Source: an uncultured virus (IMG/VR IMGVR_UViG_3300036715_001702) (Duplodnaviria; Heunggongvirae; Uroviricota; Caudoviricetes). From it: DNA of 20,000 nucleotides. The stretch lies in the IMG/VR virus record IMGVR_UViG_3300036715_001702; one strand, given 5' to 3'. The position numbers and the translations under genes were made by a program. Under the pieces are notes generated by a model, which was not told the DNA's origin, searched no databases, and worked only from the letters and a program-made list of their open reading frames with translations. Shown here one piece after another: positions 2,126 through 14,563 of this stretch. Within the stretch, counting starts at the first letter, position 1. Each line of letters opens with the position of its first letter.

Positions 2126-2716
2126 ATGATAACAAATTTCAAGACATCCGTAAATGAAAACCTGCTGGTTCCTCGTAATATCGAAGGTCGCAAGGAAAAG
2201 CTCAAACAATTAAACACGAGGTTGCTTTCACAGGAAGTGATAGATGGAGATCTTGAAATTGACGAATCTTTCATGGATATTGATCCTAAATTTTTAAAGC
2301 TCAAGAAAGTGAATGGTGATGTTTGGTTAACAGGAAATCAATGGACAGAAATACCTGTATGGTTGAAAGATGTAGAAATATCTGGATATTTTGATTTTAC
2401 ATATAATAAATTGACATCATTAAAAAACTGTCCACATAAAATAGGAAGTAGTTTATATTGTTATCGTAACCAATTAATATCTCTCGAAGGATGCCCTGAA
2501 ACTTTAAAAGGGACGTTTGATTGCTCATATAATAAATTAAAGTCTTTAGAAGGATGTCCTAAAAATATAGGAGGATATTTTGATTGCTCACATAATAAAT
2601 TAACATCACTTAAAGGATGTCCTGAAAACATAGAAGGAAAATTTAAGTGTCATGATAATAAAACCGAATTAGAACTTCCTGATTATGTAAAATTAAAAGG
2701 TGAATTTATAAATTAA
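2126..2716 (+). CDS. LRR-like repeat protein (22-aa LxSLxGCPxxIxGxFxCxxN repeats), paralog 1
   Basis: About four tandem 22-aa repeats. Closely similar to 14126-14563 and 19903-20000. Confidence 0.8.
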   Translation: MITNFKTSVNENLLVPRNIEGRKEKLKQLNTRLLSQEVIDGDLEIDESFMDIDPKFLKLKKVNGDVWLTGNQWTEIPVWLKDVEISGYFDFTYNKLTSLKNCPHKIGSSLYCYRNQLISLEGCPETLKGTFDCSYNKLKSLEGCPKNIGGYFDCSHNKLTSLKGCPENIEGKFKCHDNKTELELPDYVKLKGEFIN

Positions 2717-2981: not shown

Positions 2982-3239
2982 TTAAAAATTTGTTTTATTG
3001 TTGAAATCTGTTTGTTCTTTTTTTATTAATTCTAAAAATTTTATCCACTGTTTGTTATCGTTGACTATTGTGTCAATGCCAACTTCTTGTATGTGGTTTG
3101 CTATCATGAAACATCCTTCCAGATTTGAATGCATGTCTAGTTCGAAACATATTCTTGAAGAAGCATAGATACATATATTCATATCAGTTATGTCATATGA
3201 ATTTTCTAAGATCTGCTTGATCAACCTTTCTATTTGCAT
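2982..3239 (-). CDS. Hypothetical protein
   Basis: 85-aa ORF overlapping the upstream stop and abutting the next start. Confidence 0.6.
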   Translation of the reverse strand: MQIERLIKQILENSYDITDMNICIYASSRICFELDMHSNLEGCFMIANHIQEVGIDTIVNDNKQWIKFLELIKKEQTDFNNKTNF

Positions 3240-3784
3240 AATTCTATCAATTTTCCTAGTCTTGGCTCTGCTAATCCTGTTCCATAAATATAAGCATTAT
3301 CTTTAAAAGTTCGAATTCCATATGATCCAAGTTCGCATTCTTTATCTTTTACCATTCCAACTATATCAATTGAACCATCATAGTTCTTGACAATTTTACA
3401 ATTTATGTAATTTTTGAAAAAATTGAAGGCATCAGTAACCATACTGTGCAATATAACACCATTCACATCTTTAGTTTCGATGAGTTCTAATTTCATGAAA
3501 TATTTTCCATGTAGAGAATCTTCGATATCGTCTCTGAAGCAAGGTGTGATTGCACAATATCTGCCTTTAGGAAGGTCTTCATCCTCAATTTTTTGCAAGA
3601 AAGATTGTTCTCCAGAAGCGACTAACACTTTGTCTTCAACAAAGAAATCTTTATGATGCTCAGGTTTTGTATGAACGCTGATATCTGGATAAACGGTCCA
3701 ATCTACATCAGTGTATGTGTAACCCAAGTTTTCGTAATGATCTAGTGCTTCTATAAATCTTCTATAATTGATTATGTTTTCCAT
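3230..3784 (-). CDS. Stand-alone class II aminoacyl-tRNA synthetase-like catalytic core
   Basis: Motif-2-like TPCFRDD..H.KYFMKLE, ASGEQ (TxE-like), ELGSYG and motif-3-like GTGLAEPRL. No tRNA-binding domain. ATG 3784 is the likelier start; the ORF track gives 3814. Confidence 0.65.
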   Translation of the reverse strand: MENIINYRRFIEALDHYENLGYTYTDVDWTVYPDISVHTKPEHHKDFFVEDKVLVASGEQSFLQKIEDEDLPKGRYCAITPCFRDDIEDSLHGKYFMKLELIETKDVNGVILHSMVTDAFNFFKNYINCKIVKNYDGSIDIVGMVKDKECELGSYGIRTFKDNAYIYGTGLAEPRLGKLIELCK

Positions 3785-3791
3785 ATTTAAA

Positions 3792-4862
3792 TTAGTTTCT
3801 GTATCCGTTTTCAAATGCTCTTTTTGTTATATTACTAAATTTTTCAAGATCTTCCATTTTCAATCCTTGATTTTCAGCAAAGGCTCTAATGGCACCATAT
3901 AAATCTGATAGTTCTACCATCATCATAATCTTGCAATCTTGTTCCATAGCATCTTTTAGTTCTTCTAATTCTTCTTCTATTTTCGAAATATCTCCAAGTG
4001 TTCCTTTTTTGATATCTTTTAAATGATAACCTTTTTCTATTATATCAGGGAATATTTTTCCATCATTCCTTATAGAAAAAAGAATTTTGTCTGATGTATT
4101 TTCTGGATATGCTACTTTGCCATGTTCTGATGAAAATAACAATTCGTCATTTGAATTTTTTATTGCATAATCGTATATGCAAGATTTAATCGGTGTATAG
4201 AATAAATCTTTCATCATTTCTTCTTGAGTATAGAATTTTTCTTTCTGATAAGGAACTTCTCTATCATTATATTTATCTATGTTGTGATTTTTGTATTTCA
4301 AAACTTTGTGAGCAATAGGATAAACATGATATCTATGATAAGTTTTATGAATCCCAGTTTCAGACATTTCTATTATCACATTATCAGTATTATCATAAGC
4401 TACTAACATTCCTGTTACAGATTCGTCGTCTCTTATTTTTACTAATGAATTGATATCAATATTCTTATCATAGACTTCGTAGTAATATGTATCGCTGTAT
4501 GAATACAATTTTTCTTTAATCTTTTTCTCTACATCCTTTGTGTTGTAGATCATATCTAATGAACTATCGTCTATAGTATCCAATCCTATCAACAGGCTTT
4601 TTTGTTTTTCGTCTAGCTGTATGACTTTGTAGGGTTCACATAAAGGCCAAAGCTCATTCACTGTATATAAATAATCGTTTATCACATATGTTGTATTTAT
4701 TGTTGATTCATAAACATGATCTATGTTTTCTACATTCATGTTTCCTGATGCATTTTTTATCACTACTAATGAACCTGTTTTTAAGTTTGGATATCCTTCA
4801 TATATTTCAGATAAGAACAAGATCTCGTTAAGATAGTTTCTATGTATGTGATATTTTGCCAT
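3792..4862 (-). CDS. Protein with a C-terminal MazG/HisE-like all-alpha NTP pyrophosphohydrolase domain
   Basis: C-terminal KIEEELEELKDA...ELSDLYGAI fits the ExxE...ExxD metal-binding pattern. The N-terminal ~275 aa are unrecognised. Confidence 0.6.
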   Translation of the reverse strand: MAKYHIHRNYLNEILFLSEIYEGYPNLKTGSLVVIKNASGNMNVENIDHVYESTINTTYVINDYLYTVNELWPLCEPYKVIQLDEKQKSLLIGLDTIDDSSLDMIYNTKDVEKKIKEKLYSYSDTYYYEVYDKNIDINSLVKIRDDESVTGMLVAYDNTDNVIIEMSETGIHKTYHRYHVYPIAHKVLKYKNHNIDKYNDREVPYQKEKFYTQEEMMKDLFYTPIKSCIYDYAIKNSNDELLFSSEHGKVAYPENTSDKILFSIRNDGKIFPDIIEKGYHLKDIKKGTLGDISKIEEELEELKDAMEQDCKIMMMVELSDLYGAIRAFAENQGLKMEDLEKFSNITKRAFENGYRN

Positions 4863-8983: not shown

Positions 8984-9010
8984 AAACTTTTAAAATAAAT
9001 TTTCATATTA
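8984..9010 (+). promoter_or_regulatory. Putative phage promoter AAACTT-N15-ATATTA
   Basis: Recurrent bipartite motif, intergenic, upstream of the H1-like gene. Confidence 0.4.
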
Positions 9011-9055
9011 CATATCTAAATATTAAATTAGCAATAAATAAAACAACAAACAAAT

Positions 9056-9280
9056 ATGGCAACTTCATCAACTAAAAAAGCAGCTCCTAAAAAAGCTGCA
9101 GCGAAAAAGACTGTCGCAGCGAAAGCTCCAGCAAAAAAAGCAACAACTAAAGCTGCACCAGCTAAAAAAGCTGCACCAGCTAAAACTACAACAGCTAAAG
9201 TTGCACCAGCAAAATCTGCTGCTAAGAAAGCTGTAGTGAAGAAATCAGCTCCTAAAAAAGAAGCTGCTCGTCCTCAGTAG
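9056..9280 (+). CDS. Histone H1-like Lys/Ala/Pro-rich DNA-binding protein
   Basis: Repeated KKAAP/KAPAK units, an A-rich translation initiation region and its own terminator. Confidence 0.75.
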   Translation: MATSSTKKAAPKKAAAKKTVAAKAPAKKATTKAAPAKKAAPAKTTTAKVAPAKSAAKKAVVKKSAPKKEAARPQ

Positions 9281-9306
9281 TTATAATAAAAATAGTTAAA
9301 ATAGAT

Positions 9307-9340
9307 AAAAAACTCTAAACATATGTTTAGAGTTTTTTTT
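9307..9340 (+). terminator. Intrinsic terminator (palindromic, likely bidirectional)
   Basis: AAAAAACTCTAAAC-ATAT-GTTTAGAGTTTTTTTT. Confidence 0.85.
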
Positions 9341-9363
9341 GATAAAATATTTTTTATTCAATT

Positions 9364-9390
9364 GAACTTTTGTATATTTGTAAAGTATAA
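9364..9390 (+). promoter_or_regulatory. Promoter region of the leader/tRNA operon
   Basis: TATATTTG at 9373-9380 (Bacteroidota -7 box) and GAACTT-N15-GTATAA. Confidence 0.55.
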
Positions 9391-9397
9391 TATAGTA

Positions 9398-9475
9398 ATG
9401 AAAAACAATTCAACGATATTGACCTTATGTATGATGCTGATTCTGAAGATTGGTACTGGGCTATATATTTGTTAA
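9398..9475 (+). CDS. Putative attenuator leader peptide MKNNSTILTLCMMLILKIGTGLYIC
   Basis: 25-codon ORF between the promoter and a terminator. Codons 6-16 are all Thr/Ile/Leu/Cys/Met, matching the downstream tRNAs. Confidence 0.7.
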   Translation: MKNNSTILTLCMMLILKIGTGLYIC

Positions 9476-9501
9476 ATGTTAGATAAACATATTTTAATAA
9501 T

Positions 9502-9540
9502 AAAAGCTCAGCTCGTAAGGTTGAGTTTTTTTATTTTTAT
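9502..9540 (+). terminator. Intrinsic terminator / attenuator directly upstream of the tRNA array
   Basis: AAAAGCTCAGC-TCGTAAG-GTTGAGTTTTTTT. The 5' arm AGCTCAG (9505-9511) can alternatively pair with CTGGGCT (9456-9462). Confidence 0.75.
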
Positions 9541-9542
9541 TT

Positions 9543-9616
9543 GCCTCGTTAGTAGAGTTGGTTCATACTTCAGATTTAGAATCTGAAGATCGCTGGGTCG
9601 GAACCGGCACGAGGTA
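9543..9616 (+). tRNA. trnL: tRNA-Leu (TAG), short variable loop
   Basis: Acceptor GCCTCGT/ACGAGGT, anticodon arm TCAGA-TTTAGAA-TCTGA, variable loop AGATC, T arm GCTGG-GTCGGAA-CCGGC, discriminator A. Confidence 0.85.
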
Positions 9617-9623
9617 CAAAAAT

Positions 9624-9696
9624 AGTGCATTGATGCAGTTGGTTGACATATTGGACTTAAAATCCAAGTACATCGGATCGTTCCAGATATGCACTA
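9624..9696 (+). tRNA. trnL: tRNA-Leu (TAA), short variable loop
   Basis: Acceptor AGTGCAT/ATGCACT, anticodon arm TTGGA-CTTAAAA-TCCAA, variable loop GTAC, T arm ATCGG-ATCGTTC-CAGAT (one mismatch), discriminator A. Confidence 0.8.
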
Positions 9697-9708
9697 CAAA
9701 ATATAAAT

Positions 9709-9780
9709 TGCCATGTAGCTCAGTGATAGAGCAATTCCCTCATAAGGAATAGGTCTCGAGTTTAATCCTCGACATGGCGA
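9709..9780 (+). tRNA. tRNA with CAT anticodon (elongator Met or Ile2)
   Basis: TGCCATG/CATGGCG, GCTC/GAGC D stem, ATTCC-CTCATAA-GGAAT, TCGAG-TTTAATC-CTCGA. Lacks the three G-C anticodon-stem pairs of initiator tRNA. Confidence 0.85.
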
Positions 9781-9790
9781 CAACTAATAT

Positions 9791-9863
9791 AGTCTTATAT
9801 GTCAGTGGTTAGACGGTCAAACTGATACTTTGAAGGTCGTGTGTTCGAATCACACTAAGACTA
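9791..9863 (+). tRNA. trnI: tRNA-Ile (GAT)
   Basis: AGTCTTA/TAAGACT, TCAAA-CTGATAC-TTTGA, GTGTG-TTCGAAT-CACAC. Confidence 0.9.
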
Positions 9864-9874
9864 CTTTTAAAAAT

Positions 9875-9946
9875 GCTCATATGGCCGAGTGACTAGGTCA
9901 CGATCTGCAAAATCGTTGTACGTTGGTTTGATCCCAACTATGAGCT
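9875..9946 (+). tRNA. trnC: tRNA-Cys (GCA)
   Basis: GCTCATA/TATGAGC, ACGAT-CTGCAAA-ATCGT, GTTGG-TTTGATC-CCAAC, and the U73 discriminator expected for Cys. Confidence 0.9.
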
Positions 9947-9958
9947 CAAAATAAAAAT

Positions 9959-10030
9959 GCCGATATAGTTCAGTGTTAGAATGTCACATTTGTAATGTGA
10001 ATGTCCTGGGTTAGATTCCTAGTATCGGCT
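9959..10030 (+). tRNA. trnT: tRNA-Thr (TGT)
   Basis: GCCGATA/TATCGGC, TCACA-TTTGTAA-TGTGA, CTGGG-TTAGATT-CCTAG. Confidence 0.9.
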
Positions 10031-10054
10031 CCGAATACTGATAGTGGCTCAGAT

Positions 10055-10094
10055 TTTTTCATACATAATAAAAATATTAATTATGTATGAAAAA
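10055..10094 (+). repeat. Perfect 15-bp inverted repeat covering the HNH start codon
   Basis: TTTTTCATACATAAT (10055-10069) pairs with ATTATGTATGAAAAA (10080-10094). ATG 10087 lies inside the right arm. Confidence 0.8.
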
Positions 10095-11265
10095 TAAGAC
10101 TCAGTTTGATTATGAAAAATTAAAAAAAATTATTAGATCAAGGATTGTCAATTGATGAAATTTCATTTGAAATGAAAACATCAATATCAAATGTAAAAAG
10201 AAAAAAAATTGAATTAAAAACTGGATTAAAATATAATCTTAGAATTGTTAAAGAAGTTGAAAAAAAATAAAATGTTTATATTGCAAAAATGATATAAAAA
10301 CAACACCAAATGGACAAAGAAAATTTTGCAGTAGGGTATGCTCTATTTCATATAGAAATCAAAACAGTGATATTAAAAATAAGTGTTTCAATTGTGAAAA
10401 TGAAATAGAATCTTCTGACAAAAGAAGAAAATTTTGTAATAGTTCTTATGCATCAATTTATAATAATAAAATAAGAATTAAAAAAGAAGCTAAGCGTGCT
10501 GAAAAAAGGATATATCATAAAAGAAATAATCAAAATAAAAAAAATGTCAAAATTGTAATAGTATTGTGAAATATTCAAAAAGTGTATATTGTAGTTCTAA
10601 ATGTCAAAATCAATATCAAAGGAAACTAAAATTTGAAAAGATTGAAAATGGAGATTTAACATTATCAACAAGAGTGTATAATATTAAGTAACTGATTTTA
10701 TATCAATTTATATAAAAATATTTAAACTAAACCATTTTTATATAATATATGCTCTATTATCAATTAATTGATTAATTGATTAATGTTCATTGACATGTTG
10801 GTTGTATGAAATTTACAAATTCATACGTAAAACAAATGTAATAAAAATACATTTTTCGCACTGAAAAGTGCGAATATGAAATATTCGGTAGGGATGAGTA
10901 AACCCGAACCTGAACAAGAGATTGTTCTAAAAGATCGTGGAGATGCTGGGTTACTGGTGTCTATGAAGCAATAAGTAAAAAATGTTGGATAATTTTTCAA
11001 TATTTTGCATTACTATAAATTATATCTTATAGATAAATATGGAGCAAAATGTATGATATGCGGTTGGAATGAAATCAATCCTAAAAGTGGTAAAGTTCCA
11101 ATTGAATTAGAACATAGTGATGGAAATTCTGCCAATAATAATTTAAAAAATTTAAAATTATTATGTCCTAATCATCACTCATTAACTCCTACTTATAAAG
11201 GCTTAAATAAAGGTAATGGTAGAGCAAATAGAATGAAAAGATATCATGATTGTAAATCATGGTAA
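10087..11265 (+). pseudogene. Disrupted HNH homing endonuclease (HTH, three CxxC..(F/Y)CSxxC Zn-finger repeats, HNH)
   Basis: Fragments LLDQGLSIDEISFEMKTSISNVKR, KCLYC..RKFCSRVC, KCFNC..RKFCNSSY, KCQNC..VYCSSKC, then CMICGW..IELEHSDGNSANN..NLKLLCPNHH. Frameshifts at A8 runs near 10125, 10263 and 10540, plus a 337-bp insertion. Confidence 0.8.
10677..11013 (+). mobile_element. 337-bp non-coding insertion, probable non-autonomous IS200/605- or IS607-derived element with an omega-RNA-like right end
   Basis: Removing it restores the HNH frame (..TRV|YKLYLIDKYG..). TATAA occurs at both junctions. It has several hairpins, and the 3' part GGTAGGGATGAGTAAACCCGAAC..CGTGGAGA..TATGAAGCAATAAG resembles tnpB 3'-end sequence. 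Confidence 0.6.
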
Positions 11266-11366
11266 ACATAGGTTTATATAACATACAGTAAAAAATATTG
11301 TTTAAATAAACGCCAAGTGTTAGTTATATAAAAACTATGAAATAATAATGAATAAAATCTTAGTGT

Positions 11367-12647
11367 ATGGAAACAAAAAATAAAATATACGTTAACGTTG
11401 CATTTCCTTATCCTTCAGGAGCAGGATTACATGTAGGTCATAGTTACAATTATGCTATCATTGATAGCTACTGTAGATGGTTAACATATTATCAAAACAA
11501 AGAAGTGTTTCAACCTTTTGGTTACGACGCACATGGTTTACCGACGGAATTATATGCTGCTAAACATAATAGAGAACCAAGAGATGTAGCTTATGAAAAC
11601 ATTAACAAATTCAGAAATCAGATGCAAGATATGCATACTAACTATGTAGAAAAATTAATCACATCGGATACATCTTATCAAAAATGGACACAATGGCTGT
11701 TTTTAAAATTAAAGGAACATGGATTATGTTATAAGAAGAAAGCTGTAGTTTGTAGATGTCCCAGTTGCGAAACAGTAGTTTCTAATGAACAAGTAGAAAA
11801 CGGGAAATGTGAAAGATGTTCCACCCCTGTAGAACAAAAAGAAATGGATCAGTGGTATTTCAAGATCACTGATTACAGAGAAAGATTAATTAAAAATTTA
11901 GGACATTTAGATTATCCTGCAAAGACGAAAAAGATGCAGATCAATTGGTTAGAATCTATTACTGATTGGTGTGTATCAAGACAACGTAAATGGGGATGTC
12001 CTATTCCTATAGAAGGAGAGCTGGACACTATAGATACATTTGTTGATTCAAGCATATACTATATCAGATATAATGATCCTGAAAACGAAAATGAATTATG
12101 CTCGAAAGATAAATACAAACAAGTCGATTTATATGTGATAGGTTCTGAACACTGTAACAGACATTTGATCTATGCAAGATTTATCCATATGTTTTTATAT
12201 GATATCGGATTAGTTCCTGTTGAAGAACCTTTCGTGAAAGTGATTCATCAAGGTCACATCACAAAAGACGGTTTCAAAATGAGCAAGACTAAAGGAAACA
12301 CTGTTACTCCTGATGATTACGATTCGGATGAAATCAGAATGTATTTATGTTTCATTGGTCATTATTTTGATGGTGGAGATTGGAGCGATAAAAATATAGT
12401 CGGCATTAAACGCTTCTTCAACAGAATTGATAAATGGTTAGAAGCTCCTGGAAATGATGATATATCTAAAGAAATAGATATAATGAAATCCAAGATTGAT
12501 AAGTTTGTTACAGATTTTAAATTCAATAAAGTTGTTAGCACAATGATGGAATTTTACAATGATCATAAGAATAAAAACATCTCTATAGAAAATATTACAG
12601 AGTTTAAGAAAGTGTTAGGTTGTTTTGCACCAAAAAAGTACAGTTAA
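11367..12647 (+). CDS. leuS: Minimal leucyl-tRNA synthetase (426 aa)
   Basis: FPYPSGAGLHVGH (HIGH motif), GYDAHGLPTE, Zn knuckle CPSC..CERC, DWCVSRQRKWGCPIP, DTFVDSS, EEPF and KMSKTKGN. Confidence 0.92.
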   Translation: METKNKIYVNVAFPYPSGAGLHVGHSYNYAIIDSYCRWLTYYQNKEVFQPFGYDAHGLPTELYAAKHNREPRDVAYENINKFRNQMQDMHTNYVEKLITSDTSYQKWTQWLFLKLKEHGLCYKKKAVVCRCPSCETVVSNEQVENGKCERCSTPVEQKEMDQWYFKITDYRERLIKNLGHLDYPAKTKKMQINWLESITDWCVSRQRKWGCPIPIEGELDTIDTFVDSSIYYIRYNDPENENELCSKDKYKQVDLYVIGSEHCNRHLIYARFIHMFLYDIGLVPVEEPFVKVIHQGHITKDGFKMSKTKGNTVTPDDYDSDEIRMYLCFIGHYFDGGDWSDKNIVGIKRFFNRIDKWLEAPGNDDISKEIDIMKSKIDKFVTDFKFNKVVSTMMEFYNDHKNKNISIENITEFKKVLGCFAPKKYS

Positions 12648-12663
12648 AAGCTGTACTTTTTTT
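12632..12663 (+). terminator. Intrinsic terminator overlapping the leuS stop
   Basis: AAAAAAGTACAG-TTAAAAG-CTGTACTTTTTTT. Confidence 0.85.
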
Positions 12664-12696
12664 ATTTTTGGTTATTAATAACTAAAATTTTTTATT

Positions 12697-12704
12697 TATA
12701 TTTG
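12697..12704 (+). promoter_or_regulatory. Bacteroidota-type -7 promoter box TATATTTG
   Basis: Intergenic, after a terminator and 16 nt before ATG 12721. Confidence 0.5.
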
Positions 12705-12720
12705 TTCCAAATTATTTAAC

Positions 12721-13467
12721 ATGATAACAATTCAACGCAAAATCACAGATAAAGTGCAAATAGATATTGCTAACTTCTTTACAAAATGGAATGGTCAATT
12801 CACACTAGAAGAAGTGTGTAAAGTTTTGATAAAGATGAACTACCGCTATGACAAAAATGAGGTTTATGAAACGATCAAAAAGAACCAATCTTCTCTTAAA
12901 TCTGATAAAGTTGTATTTGTCAACGATACAGATCTGATAGTAGATGTTTTAGAATTATGTGCTAATAACATGGCTAAAACCTATATAGGGCAAATCTCAC
13001 ATATAATCAAAATGATCAAACCTTTGATGGATTATAGAGTGATCGGAAATATATTATACAAAGAGTGTGTTAAAGATAACTCTTTATATAAATGTATAGA
13101 CGAGAAAGGTGTAGGTGTATACACTTTGGCTGAACGAAATTTTGAAAAGTATGTAAAAACTGAAGTTGGTAAATTTTCAGGTTTATCTGATCATACAAAT
13201 AATAAAAGTAATAATATGGGAAGAGGAGGAAAAAGAAGAGTTTTTCTGAAACCTCTTGCTACAGACATAGGAAAGATGGATGCTCATTATCTGAAGATGA
13301 AATATGATGAAGATTCATGGGTTGTTTCAAATTTGAAAAATAAGGATGATATCATATTATTGAACGGTTCCGAATCTCCTGATCATGTAAGAACTTTCTA
13401 TTCGAGAGAGTATAAAGTAAAACATGATGATGTGAGAAATCGTCGTCTAAAAAATTACCCATGGTAG
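12721..13467 (+). CDS. Hypothetical protein
   Basis: 248-aa ORF, no recognised motif. Confidence 0.65.
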   Translation: MITIQRKITDKVQIDIANFFTKWNGQFTLEEVCKVLIKMNYRYDKNEVYETIKKNQSSLKSDKVVFVNDTDLIVDVLELCANNMAKTYIGQISHIIKMIKPLMDYRVIGNILYKECVKDNSLYKCIDEKGVGVYTLAERNFEKYVKTEVGKFSGLSDHTNNKSNNMGRGGKRRVFLKPLATDIGKMDAHYLKMKYDEDSWVVSNLKNKDDIILLNGSESPDHVRTFYSREYKVKHDDVRNRRLKNYPW

Positions 13468-14129
13468 TAAATTTTCAACCATTAGACTCTCTCAATTTAA
13501 GAATTGCTAAAACAGTGTGGCATTATGCAGATCTCTATAATTTAGAATGCAGTAAAGAACTAGCTCTCAAAATAGGAGACATGAAGCTCAGTAAAATGCT
13601 AATCAGAGCTGCATATTTCATGCCAGATGATATAAGTGATTACGCTTTAATTAAACATATATACGAAAATCAAAATGTGTTCACTGTTGATTTTATAAAA
13701 CATATAATCAACAACATTTCTAAAGCTTTGGAGAATGGGAAAAATTCAGAATTGATCGCCGTTAAAATAGAAGAGTTTCTAAAGAGGAGTGTAGATAAGA
13801 CGTTAAAAGAACGAGATCTAAAAGGTATAGATTATCAGGTTATTGATAAGTTCGGAAGAACCAAAAATATGCAATGCAAGAAGGTGTATAATTTGGAAAG
13901 AATAGGAAATTTCTTAATATTTTCTTATGAAGGTACTGTCTCTTTGAACGAGATCGAAATACTCACCATAATGGATTTCAAAATAGCATACAGGATAGGA
14001 AATTTTGATTGCTACAAGATTGTAAAAGAAAATAATTCTAGGAATACTCTATATAAATATCCAATAGAACATAATACTGATATCATTCAGTTTAATATAG
14101 AAAATGATAAAATAGAAATTATCGCTTAA
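13461..14129 (+). CDS. Hypothetical protein
   Basis: 222-aa ORF overlapping the upstream stop. Confidence 0.65.
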   Translation: MVVNFQPLDSLNLRIAKTVWHYADLYNLECSKELALKIGDMKLSKMLIRAAYFMPDDISDYALIKHIYENQNVFTVDFIKHIINNISKALENGKNSELIAVKIEEFLKRSVDKTLKERDLKGIDYQVIDKFGRTKNMQCKKVYNLERIGNFLIFSYEGTVSLNEIEILTIMDFKIAYRIGNFDCYKIVKENNSRNTLYKYPIEHNTDIIQFNIENDKIEIIA

Positions 14130-14563
14130 TTTATAAACTTCCCTTTTACTTTTGCATAACATGGAAGTTTTAATATAGTTTTGTTAGCGTAGCAGTAAAA
14201 AACTCCTGTTATTTTAGGTGGACAATTTTTTAATGTTGATAATTTGTTATTAATACACAGAAAACTTCCTTCTATATCATGCGGACAGTTTTTCAGTGTT
14301 GCCAATTTATTAAACGAACAGCTAAAATCACCATTTATTTTTATATCTTTCAACCACTCAGGTATTTCAATCCATTCCCCTCCTGTTAACCAAACATCAG
14401 CATTCACTTTTTTTAATTTCACAAATTTTGGATCGATGTCCATGAATGATTCATCCAAAACAAGATCTCCATCGATCACTTCCTGAGAAAGTAATTTTAT
14501 GTTCATCTGTTTGAGCTTTTCCTTGCGGCCTTCCAGGTTTCTAGGGACTAGTATATTTGTCAT
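14126..14563 (-). CDS. LRR-like repeat protein, paralog 2
   Basis: N-terminal half nearly identical to 2126-2716 (LVPRNxEGRKEKLKQ..LLSQEVIDGDL..DESFMDIDPKF). About two repeats. Confidence 0.8.
   Translation of the reverse strand: MTNILVPRNLEGRKEKLKQMNIKLLSQEVIDGDLVLDESFMDIDPKFVKLKKVNADVWLTGGEWIEIPEWLKDIKINGDFSCSFNKLATLKNCPHDIEGSFLCINNKLSTLKNCPPKITGVFYCYANKTILKLPCYAKVKGKFIN

Follow-up and report, generated by a model that had tools for sequence, protein, structure and literature searches.

Short-armed tRNA-Leu genes near a half-size leucyl-tRNA synthetase in an uncultured tailed phage: arm loss appears to be a general phage trait

The stretch of DNA analyzed here (the window, 20,000 nucleotides (nt) in full) comes from a giant uncultured phage, the Caudoviricetes record IMGVR_UViG_3300036715_001702, and carries two transfer RNA (tRNA) genes with leucine anticodons, referred to as tRNA1 and tRNA2, together with a gene for a half-size leucyl-tRNA synthetase (LeuRS), hereafter the mini-LeuRS. 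The explanation that we favor, with moderate confidence, is that the two genes are a short-loop phage tRNA-Leu pair whose arm loss is a general phage trait, and that their products are probable rather than exclusive substrates of the mini-LeuRS. An earlier note on this DNA had proposed a stronger reading, in which the tRNAs and the enzyme had shrunk together into a leucylation system private to the phage. Such a co-shrunk private pair, if real, would give synthetic biology an orthogonal pair ready for use and the phage a means of counter-defence; its main support is removed by the co-occurrence evidence presented below. The three genes concerned are the following.

9543..9616, + strand: tRNA-Leu (tRNA1), anticodon UAG, short variable loop AGAUC (ARAGORN, Rfam RF00005)
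9624..9696, + strand: tRNA-Leu (tRNA2), anticodon UAA, short variable loop GUAC (ARAGORN, Rfam RF00005)
11367..12647, + strand: half-size leucyl-tRNA synthetase, 426 amino acids (aa), catalytic core with HVGH and KMSKT, co-oriented with the tRNAs

ARAGORN calls the first gene tRNA-Leu(tag), with a span of 9543-9617 (75 nt), and the second tRNA-Leu(taa), with a span of 9624-9697 (74 nt); in both cases the span reaches one base beyond the discriminator. The Rfam model RF00005, with a gathering score of 29 bits, scores tRNA1 (9543-9616) at 49.8 bits (E 3.5e-08) and tRNA2 (9624-9696) at 43.6 bits (E 1.8e-06), and both matches cover the model in full (positions 1-71 of 71). By this alignment, tRNA1 has the 5-nt variable loop AGAUC, which is reduced to 4 nt in the ARAGORN drawing, where the anticodon stem gains a sixth pair; tRNA2 has the 4-nt loop GUAC, and the discriminator of both is A73. 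The T loops read GUCGGAA in tRNA1 (G54/G58) and AUCGUUC in tRNA2 (A54/U58), with U55 and C56 kept in both; the loop lengths of 4-5 nt, A73 and the altered 54/58 positions had all been described correctly in the earlier note, as judged from ARAGORN and the Rfam alignment. A14, G18 and G19 are also present in both tRNAs, and the acceptor ends carry G1-U72 in tRNA1 and A1-U72 in tRNA2. Every stem of tRNA1 is intact, and tRNA2 contains two non-standard pairs, one in the D stem and one in the T stem (a G-A mismatch). CCA is unencoded in both genes, the bases past A73 being CAA each time. The long variable arm that marks class II tRNA-Leu, a hairpin of over 10 nt, is absent from both, and the features of type I tRNA-Leu, namely a leucine anticodon, a variable loop of 4-5 nt, A73 and A14, are present in both. 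The window has a G+C content of 30%, and the leucine codons of its open reading frames (ORFs; n=472) are divided between UUA and UUG (63%) and CUN (37%); going by the anticodons, UAA and UAG together could read all six leucine codons.

Co-occurrence was examined starting from the tRNA, with an IMG/VR search that used the distinctive D arm of the largest short-Leu subfamily. This motif occurs in at least 123 viral stretches, 80 loci of which were examined with their flanks. Leu-anticodon tRNAs of 74-78 nt account for 70 of the 83 D-arm matches; 11 are without an ARAGORN call and 2 are ambiguous, with none in any other named isotype. A mini-LeuRS lies within 10 kilobases (kb) in only 1 of the 80 loci, and that locus is on a contig already found via the enzyme. 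No mini-LeuRS was found in any of eight whole contigs with short tRNA-Leu, six of them at least 95% complete, in a LeuRS search whose positive control was recovered at E 5e-172. The expected association of short-arm tRNA-Leu with a minimal LeuRS is therefore not borne out when the tRNA is taken as the starting point.

The short form is also frequent in deposited genomes. A 75-nt short tRNA-Leu matches 151 deposited phage records, mostly annotated 'tRNA-Leu', with hosts including Escherichia, Salmonella, Erwinia, Mycobacterium, Streptomyces, cyanobacteria and others, and there is no overlap between the 40 short-tRNA-Leu records listed and 33 records with LeuRS-like matches. Annotated tRNA-Leu genes of 74-79 nt are present in cultured phages whose hosts (E. 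coli, Mycobacterium, Prochlorococcus and Pseudomonas) have an ordinary LeuRS; in four cultured phages checked, the variable loops of tRNA-Leu measure 4-7 nt, and tRNA-Ser and tRNA-Tyr are 88-90 nt long. Short tRNA-Leu without the enzyme (n=100) have A73 and T54/A58 in 100/100 each and T at the last variable position in 98/100, and the corresponding values for all short tRNA-Leu (n=136) are 134/136, 136/136 and 133/136; in the motif-selected tRNAs, A14-A15 and A20a are set by the search pattern and so provide no independent evidence. Because short tRNA-Leu are common in phages without LeuRS, arm loss in phage tRNA-Leu appears, on these sequence comparisons, to be widespread and not to depend on the mini-LeuRS. 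By itself, the absence of the arm is uninformative about that enzyme, and it is no evidence of private pairing, since many ordinary phages without a LeuRS of their own share it. The premise that bacterial tRNA-Leu are always class II is likewise contradicted by a published exception in Streptomyces, described in PMC6614811.

Starting from the enzyme, 63 IMG/VR and 41 metagenome loci with relatives of the mini-LeuRS were collected, together with flanks of at most 10 kb per side. Of the 230 unique tRNAs lying within 10 kb of the enzyme, 68 are tRNA-Leu, and the next isotypes, Val and Ser, have 15 each, which upholds the idea that tRNA-Leu genes recurrently adjoin the mini-LeuRS. The variable regions of these tRNA-Leu are bimodal, at 4-8 nt or 12-24 nt. 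Counting loci with duplicates included, the IMG/VR set comprises 13 with both shapes, 5 with long forms only and 45 without tRNA-Leu, and the metagenome set 14 with both, 8 with long forms only, 18 without tRNA-Leu and a single locus, a 3-kb fragment, with short forms only. Pooled, 27 loci have both shapes, 13 are long-only and 1 is short-only besides the window, so that long-arm tRNA-Leu, alone or mixed with short, is found in 40 of the 41 relative loci having any tRNA-Leu. The window is the sole long locus with short tRNA-Leu only, and no tRNA-Leu gene besides its pair lies within 10 kb of the LeuRS in this phage. In one relative locus, L019, the same anticodons occur in both shapes (UAA at 86 and 75 nt, CAA at 85 and 75 nt), and every tRNA-Ser gene in the loci collected keeps its long arm. 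The proposal that the tRNAs and the LeuRS have shrunk together does not survive this comparison, the same enzyme of about 420 aa standing beside long-arm tRNA-Leu in 40 of 41 relative loci. As a separate observation, three tRNA-Leu with unpaired variable regions of 7-10 nt (L026 8260-8340, L023 6281-6357 and L040 11588-11664) are intermediate between short and long, in a structural parse that omitted two long Leu tRNAs.

The enzyme itself is a strongly reduced LeuRS. The 426-aa protein matches class I synthetase Pfam families and contains, besides the core, a zinc-finger insertion and a short helical bundle. A sequence search against solved structures returned LeuRS for all of the top 17 matches, the best being the CP1-less enzyme of Mycoplasma mobile (3ziu), to which query residues 3-226 align at chain residues 34-273 and query residues 248-422 at 353-545 of 637. 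Against the 878-aa LeuRS of T. thermophilus, the alignment skips the residues between 224 and 419 and those between 578 and 637, and stops near 753, before the C-terminal domain; no PF13603 or PF08264 match is found in the protein by Pfam. An AlphaFold model computed from a 27-sequence alignment has a predicted local distance difference test (pLDDT) value of 87.3 and a predicted template-modeling score (pTM) of 0.85. In Foldseek, it matches 3ziu with a template-modeling (TM) score of 0.89-0.91 on the query, and full-length LeuRSs with 0.84-0.87 on the query and just 0.43-0.50 on the target, and the top 44 matches are LeuRS without exception. The residues of the HIGH and KMSKS motifs are invariant across the 27-member alignment. 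As the LeuRS alignments skip these regions and the target TM scores on full-length LeuRSs are low, the enzyme is without the CP1 editing domain, the leucine-specific domain and the C-terminal tRNA-binding domain; the earlier note was right about a co-oriented leuS lacking its C-terminal domain, and the alignments and Foldseek add that CP1 and the leucine-specific domain are also gone.

The family of LeuRSs of about 420 aa without editing, leucine-specific or C-terminal domains is very large in giant phages. The best 120 near-length matches share 60-67% identity with the window enzyme, are mostly about 420 aa long and lie on contigs of up to 780 kb; the top identity among metagenome relatives is 66%, and the deposited phage collection holds one 65% match, the nearest deposited relative being in the 635-kb uncultured phage record LR745206.1. 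Longer relatives consist of two fusions and ordinary LeuRSs of about 800 aa that match 45-61% of the query. One of the fusions, P0121 (777 aa), joins the mini form, 58% identical across 98% of the query, to methyltransferase domains; in the other, P0122 (813 aa), it is interrupted by an intein with a LAGLIDADG endonuclease. Two relatives of 520-541 aa, L063 10001-11551 and L066 5334-6896, retain an editing-domain remnant (PF13603, E 1e-20 and 5e-23), so the family includes intermediates in CP1 loss. No Pfam family matches the 60-residue C-terminal extension of the L022 enzyme. With regard to a partner supplying the missing C-terminal domain in trans, the two ORFs downstream of LeuRS are matched in 0 of the 104 relative loci, and no other protein-coding neighbor is conserved with the mini-LeuRS across these loci. 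The LeuRS gene of the window uses TTA, the codon read by the adjacent tRNA-Leu(UAA), for 19 of its 22 leucines, and no leucine-rich leader ORF was seen by eye in the 100 nt upstream of it.

For the isotype profiles, the anticodon was masked and the variable region cut out, and 16 of 230 tRNAs, which could not be parsed, were omitted. The profile of long-arm phage tRNA-Leu recovered 41/41 of its members in leave-one-out and attracted 1/135 other tRNAs. Among the 25 short forms near the mini-LeuRS, which include the two of the window, 8 score best on the long-arm Leu profile when no short-Leu class is offered; with a separate short-Leu class and each phage left out in turn, 17 score best on short-Leu and 4 on long-Leu. 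Judged by these profiles, short phage tRNA-Leu appear to form a coherent family. The window pair stands outside the widespread part of it, having neither the D arm TAGCCCAAWWGGNAGAGGC or a near variant, nor the canonical T loop, nor a best score on the family profile made from other phages; its D arms differ from that of the widespread short-arm family. Both tRNAs have the Leu-type D-loop geometry, with four bases from A14 to G18 and three after G19, which is found in 156/234 phage tRNA-Leu vs 123/855 other tRNAs. From the E. coli-type identity set they have A73, A14 and G18G19, with A15-U48, A20a and U54:A58 replaced, and the 15-48 change is compensatory in both. Altered elbows are a habit of this phage's whole tRNA set and not Leu-specific. 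In three of the four other tRNAs of the array, the universal G19-C56 is replaced by covarying pairs, A19-U56 in the CAU and Cys tRNAs and U19-A56 in the Thr tRNA. No relatives of the two window tRNA-Leu were found in the metagenome loci or in an IMG/VR pattern search; that search, with the window D arm and anticodon loop, gave one match, in apparent coding sequence and without a tRNA call.

Comparison with known systems places the pair among several partial counterparts. Among them are the short-loop tRNA-Leu of the cultured phages vB_EcoM_ESCO50 (Escherichia), Rey (Mycobacterium), P-RSM6 (Cyanophage) and vB_PseuGesM_254 (Pseudomonas), which share with the window pair Leu anticodons (UAG, UAA, CAA), variable loops of 4-7 nt, A73, a D arm made of a 3-bp stem and a large loop, and placement in phage arrays in which tRNA-Ser and tRNA-Tyr stay long-armed. 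They differ in the D arm, which is TAGCCCAAYTGGNAGAGGC or a near variant, and in having A15-U48 and A20a together with a T loop of the canonical form TTCRANT, and, unlike the window phage, these phages have no LeuRS gene. In Streptomyces coelicolor, Fan et al. (2019) described a type I tRNA-Leu(CAA) with a 5-nt variable loop that is leucylated and coexists with the long-arm form (PMC6614811). According to that article, its U8-A14 pair is an identity element (A14 being kept in the window tRNAs), the elbow matters less for it than for the long-arm form, and it needs the leucine-specific domain of a full-length LeuRS, whereas the phage enzyme is without that domain; it is, moreover, a cellular tRNA, and the window tRNAs are viral. 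Animal mitochondrial tRNA-Leu(UUR), as reviewed in PMC9976931, resembles the window pair in its short variable loop, its identity elements A73 and A14 and its loose A+T-rich structure, but mitochondrial LeuRS keeps the E. coli domain set (PMC6614811), while the phage LeuRS has lost three domains.

On the side of the enzyme, the closest match in both sequence and fold is the Mycoplasma mobile LeuRS 3ZIU of Yan et al. (2013), which has no CP1, carries GKDG in place of the leucine-specific domain, where the TKDG of the phage enzyme aligns, and is active, mischarging isoleucine (PMC3643597). The M. mobile enzyme (637 aa) retains a C-terminal region of about 90 residues past the aligned part, whereas the phage LeuRS ends at chain residue ~545 of 3ZIU. 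The huge phages of Al-Shayeb et al. (2020) are described as carrying tRNA synthetases (PMC7162821), and the nearest deposited relative, noted above, is in the 635-kb phage record LR745206.1; a half-size LeuRS or tRNA-Leu shape is not mentioned in the passages of that article consulted. In the open-access literature searched, nothing on point was found on phage type I tRNA-Leu or an editing-less phage LeuRS. What is known already is the type I tRNA-Leu of animal mitochondria and of Streptomyces coelicolor, along with the annotated genes in many deposited phages.

Taken with these comparisons, the two window tRNAs are most likely phage-supplied tRNA-Leu that would be among the substrates of the adjacent mini-LeuRS, because tRNA-Leu genes recurrently cluster with that enzyme. 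Since both shapes cluster beside it in giant phages of the clade, the mini-LeuRS most likely accepts phage tRNA-Leu of either shape for leucylation. The short tRNA-Leu of LeuRS-less phages are presumably charged by the host LeuRS, given that their phages lack LeuRS and that the nucleotides reported for E. coli LeuRS are kept; the determinants listed for that enzyme are A73, A15-U48, G18G19, A20a and U54:A58, with the arm and the anticodon dispensable (PMC9976931). What the sequences show is the anatomy of the tRNAs, the domain content of the enzyme and the co-occurrence as seen from both sides; that the window pair is expressed, would accept leucine and may be charged by either enzyme is an inference.

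Several observations weigh against this explanation. The type I tRNA-Leu of Streptomyces was not a substrate for E. coli LeuRS (PMC6614811), so that host charging of short forms is not guaranteed, and the association of tRNA-Leu with the mini-LeuRS is not universal, 45 of the 63 IMG/VR loci having no tRNA-Leu within 10 kb. tRNA1 reaches at most 4.9 bits on any isotype profile (Asn) and receives no score from the short-Leu profile, and tRNA2 scores best on Phe (17.1 bits), with 11.8 bits on short-Leu and 4.9 on long-Leu. These isotype scores do not place the window tRNAs, which fit no Leu profile, with no other isotype consistently favored either. The pair are the only 2 of 236 phage tRNA-Leu examined without T54/A58, and they have G15-C48 and U20a, not A15-U48 and A20a. 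Their cloverleaves lie above the computed minimum-energy fold by 3.5-6.7 kcal/mol (tRNA1) and 3.3-5.6 kcal/mol (tRNA2), although minimum-energy folding is not diagnostic for this array, in which the CAU and Cys tRNAs, and Thr in part, are the ones of six with cloverleaf-like minimum-energy folds. The tRNA-Leu inventory of this phage is, in addition, that of the 20,000-nt window, and long-arm genes could lie elsewhere in the genome.

The altered elbows could alternatively reflect a co-adaptation specific to the window, in which remodeled tRNA-Leu would be charged poorly by host LeuRS and accepted by the tail-less phage LeuRS. The outcome would be a compact, largely host-independent LeuRS/tRNA-Leu pair for all six leucine codons. 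The replaced A15-U48, A20a and U54:A58 are among the listed E. coli LeuRS determinants (PMC9976931), and the E. coli C-terminal domain, absent from the phage enzyme, is said to contact C56, A20a and 47f-47i (PMC6614811). The changes are unique to the window pair among the 236 phage tRNA-Leu, and the pair, which could cover the six codons, has no other tRNA-Leu within 10 kb of the LeuRS beside it. Such co-adaptation is nevertheless unlikely, both as to the altered charging and as to the resulting host-independent pair, as 0 of 116 tRNA-Leu linked to the same enzyme in other phages show the elbow changes, so that the mini-LeuRS does not require them, and the changes are genome-wide here, the CAU, Cys and Thr tRNAs having a swapped 19-56 pair.

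The same outlier status at positions 54 and 58 would also be expected of decaying or poorly functional tRNA copies under relaxed selection in a very A+T-rich genome, as would the T-stem G-A pair of tRNA2 with the lowest Rfam score of the array (43.6 bits), minimum-energy folds that are not cloverleaves (z = -0.98 for tRNA2) and the poor fit of both tRNAs to any isotype model. Decay is improbable, however, considering that both tRNAs score well above the Rfam gathering score, with tRNA1 (49.8 bits) equaling the tRNA-Cys of the array (50.3 bits), that the stems of tRNA1 are intact, that positions 15 and 48 have changed jointly to G-C with the tertiary pair preserved, and that U55, C56, G18, G19, A14 and A73 are retained; in silico, two neighbors in the array, the tRNAs for Ile and Thr, likewise fail to form a cloverleaf. 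A further alternative is that the tRNAs have Leu anticodons but would be charged with another amino acid, in a phage-driven recoding or deliberate mistranslation of UUR and CUN. With the anticodon masked, the window tRNAs are no closer to Leu than to others, and A73 is common to many isotypes. Most synthetases for A73 isotypes depend on the anticodon, however, and the anticodons here are those of Leu. The best alternative scores, 4.9 bits for Asn and 17.1 bits for Phe, are neither strong nor consistent, the D-loop geometry is Leu-type, the window ORFs are normal under translation table 11 and a LeuRS is adjacent, making a non-leucine identity very improbable.

Under the favored explanation of a short-loop phage tRNA-Leu pair, the significance lies in the distribution of the short form and in the enzyme. 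Short-armed tRNA-Leu are common in phages of many hosts, against the statement of a review that tRNA-Leu is long-armed everywhere but in animal mitochondria (PMC9976931). Why phages drop the arm from Leu and not from Ser or Tyr is a question testable in cultured systems, such as Felixounavirus in E. coli, which carries three tRNA-Leu genes of 77-79 nt, and it is sharpened by the failure of E. coli LeuRS on the Streptomyces tRNA (PMC6614811). The mini-LeuRS raises the question of how tRNA is gripped, and with what accuracy it is charged, without three domains, and the window pair, as the extreme elbow case, are natural first substrates for assays of this enzyme.

The two tRNA-Leu come first in an array of six co-oriented tRNA genes at 9543-10032 (ARAGORN), and the remaining members and the nearby elements are as follows.

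9502..9530, + strand: terminator-like hairpin, 12-pair stem and T run, directly upstream of the tRNA array
9709-9780, + strand: tRNA, anticodon CAU (ARAGORN, Rfam)
9791-9863, + strand: tRNA-Ile, anticodon GAU (ARAGORN, Rfam)
9875-9946, + strand: tRNA-Cys, anticodon GCA (ARAGORN, Rfam)
9959-10030, + strand: tRNA-Thr, anticodon UGU (ARAGORN, Rfam)
11005..11265, + strand: HNH endonuclease-like ORF, 86 aa, between the tRNA array and the LeuRS gene (PF13392, E 0.0091)
12632..12662, + strand: terminator-like hairpin, 14-pair stem followed by a T run, overlapping the LeuRS stop codon

A permissive Rfam scan of 9250-11450 gave the six tRNAs and nothing more, and contigs of four DNA runs covering the array showed no differences from the window sequence. 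The LeuRS gene sits 1.7 kb downstream of the tRNA-Leu pair. Terminator-like sites in 9000-12800 number 9 against 0.9 expected from shuffles, and a promoter scan gave 26 sites against 25 expected, without excess. The PF13392 match of the HNH-like ORF falls short of the Pfam cut-off; in blastn, the ORF matches genes that are annotated in other phages as homing/HNH endonucleases, and it is 52% and 50% identical to ORFs in two relative loci (L042 and L103). Besides this HNH endonuclease, the phage-type genes of the window include a lysozyme-like ORF and genes for DnaJ, a PrsW protease and an NAD-dependent ligase, and the window ORFs read normally under table 11.

The CAU tRNA is called Met. ATA is the commonest Ile codon in the window ORFs (264, vs 123 ATT and 125 ATC) and is read by no other tRNA of the window, and the CAU tRNA may be a lysidine-type tRNA-Ile. 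Between the array and the HNH-like ORF, the segment 10668-11009 has a depth of 33-70 vs about 5 in its flanks in all four DNA runs, and this 5-10x depth, together with variant contigs, indicates that it recurs in other genomes of the same samples. It contains a hairpin at 10855-10874 and, by eye, a short ORF of about 33 codons (roughly 10876-10974) directly upstream of the HNH ORF, and Rfam gives no match in it.

A second stripped-down synthetase-like gene of the window is a 194-aa ORF at 3230-3814 on the - strand, with a class II synthetase-like FRDD motif. It matches PHROG 4806, labeled 'histidyl tRNA synthetase', at E 1e-41, and has no Pfam match and no sequence match among solved structures; its nearest Atlas clusters are viral proteins of about 190 aa, some with class II synthetase Pfam families. 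The ORF is conserved (39% identity), along with its neighbor at 3792-4862, near the tRNA/LeuRS region of the L026 phage. Elsewhere in the window, the paralogous ORFs 2126-2716 (+ strand) and 14126-14563 (- strand) have near-identical N-terminal stretches (…LVPRNIEGRKEKLKQ…LLSQEVIDGDL…) and Cys-rich, leucine-rich-repeat-like C-terminal halves with a weak LRR_4 match.

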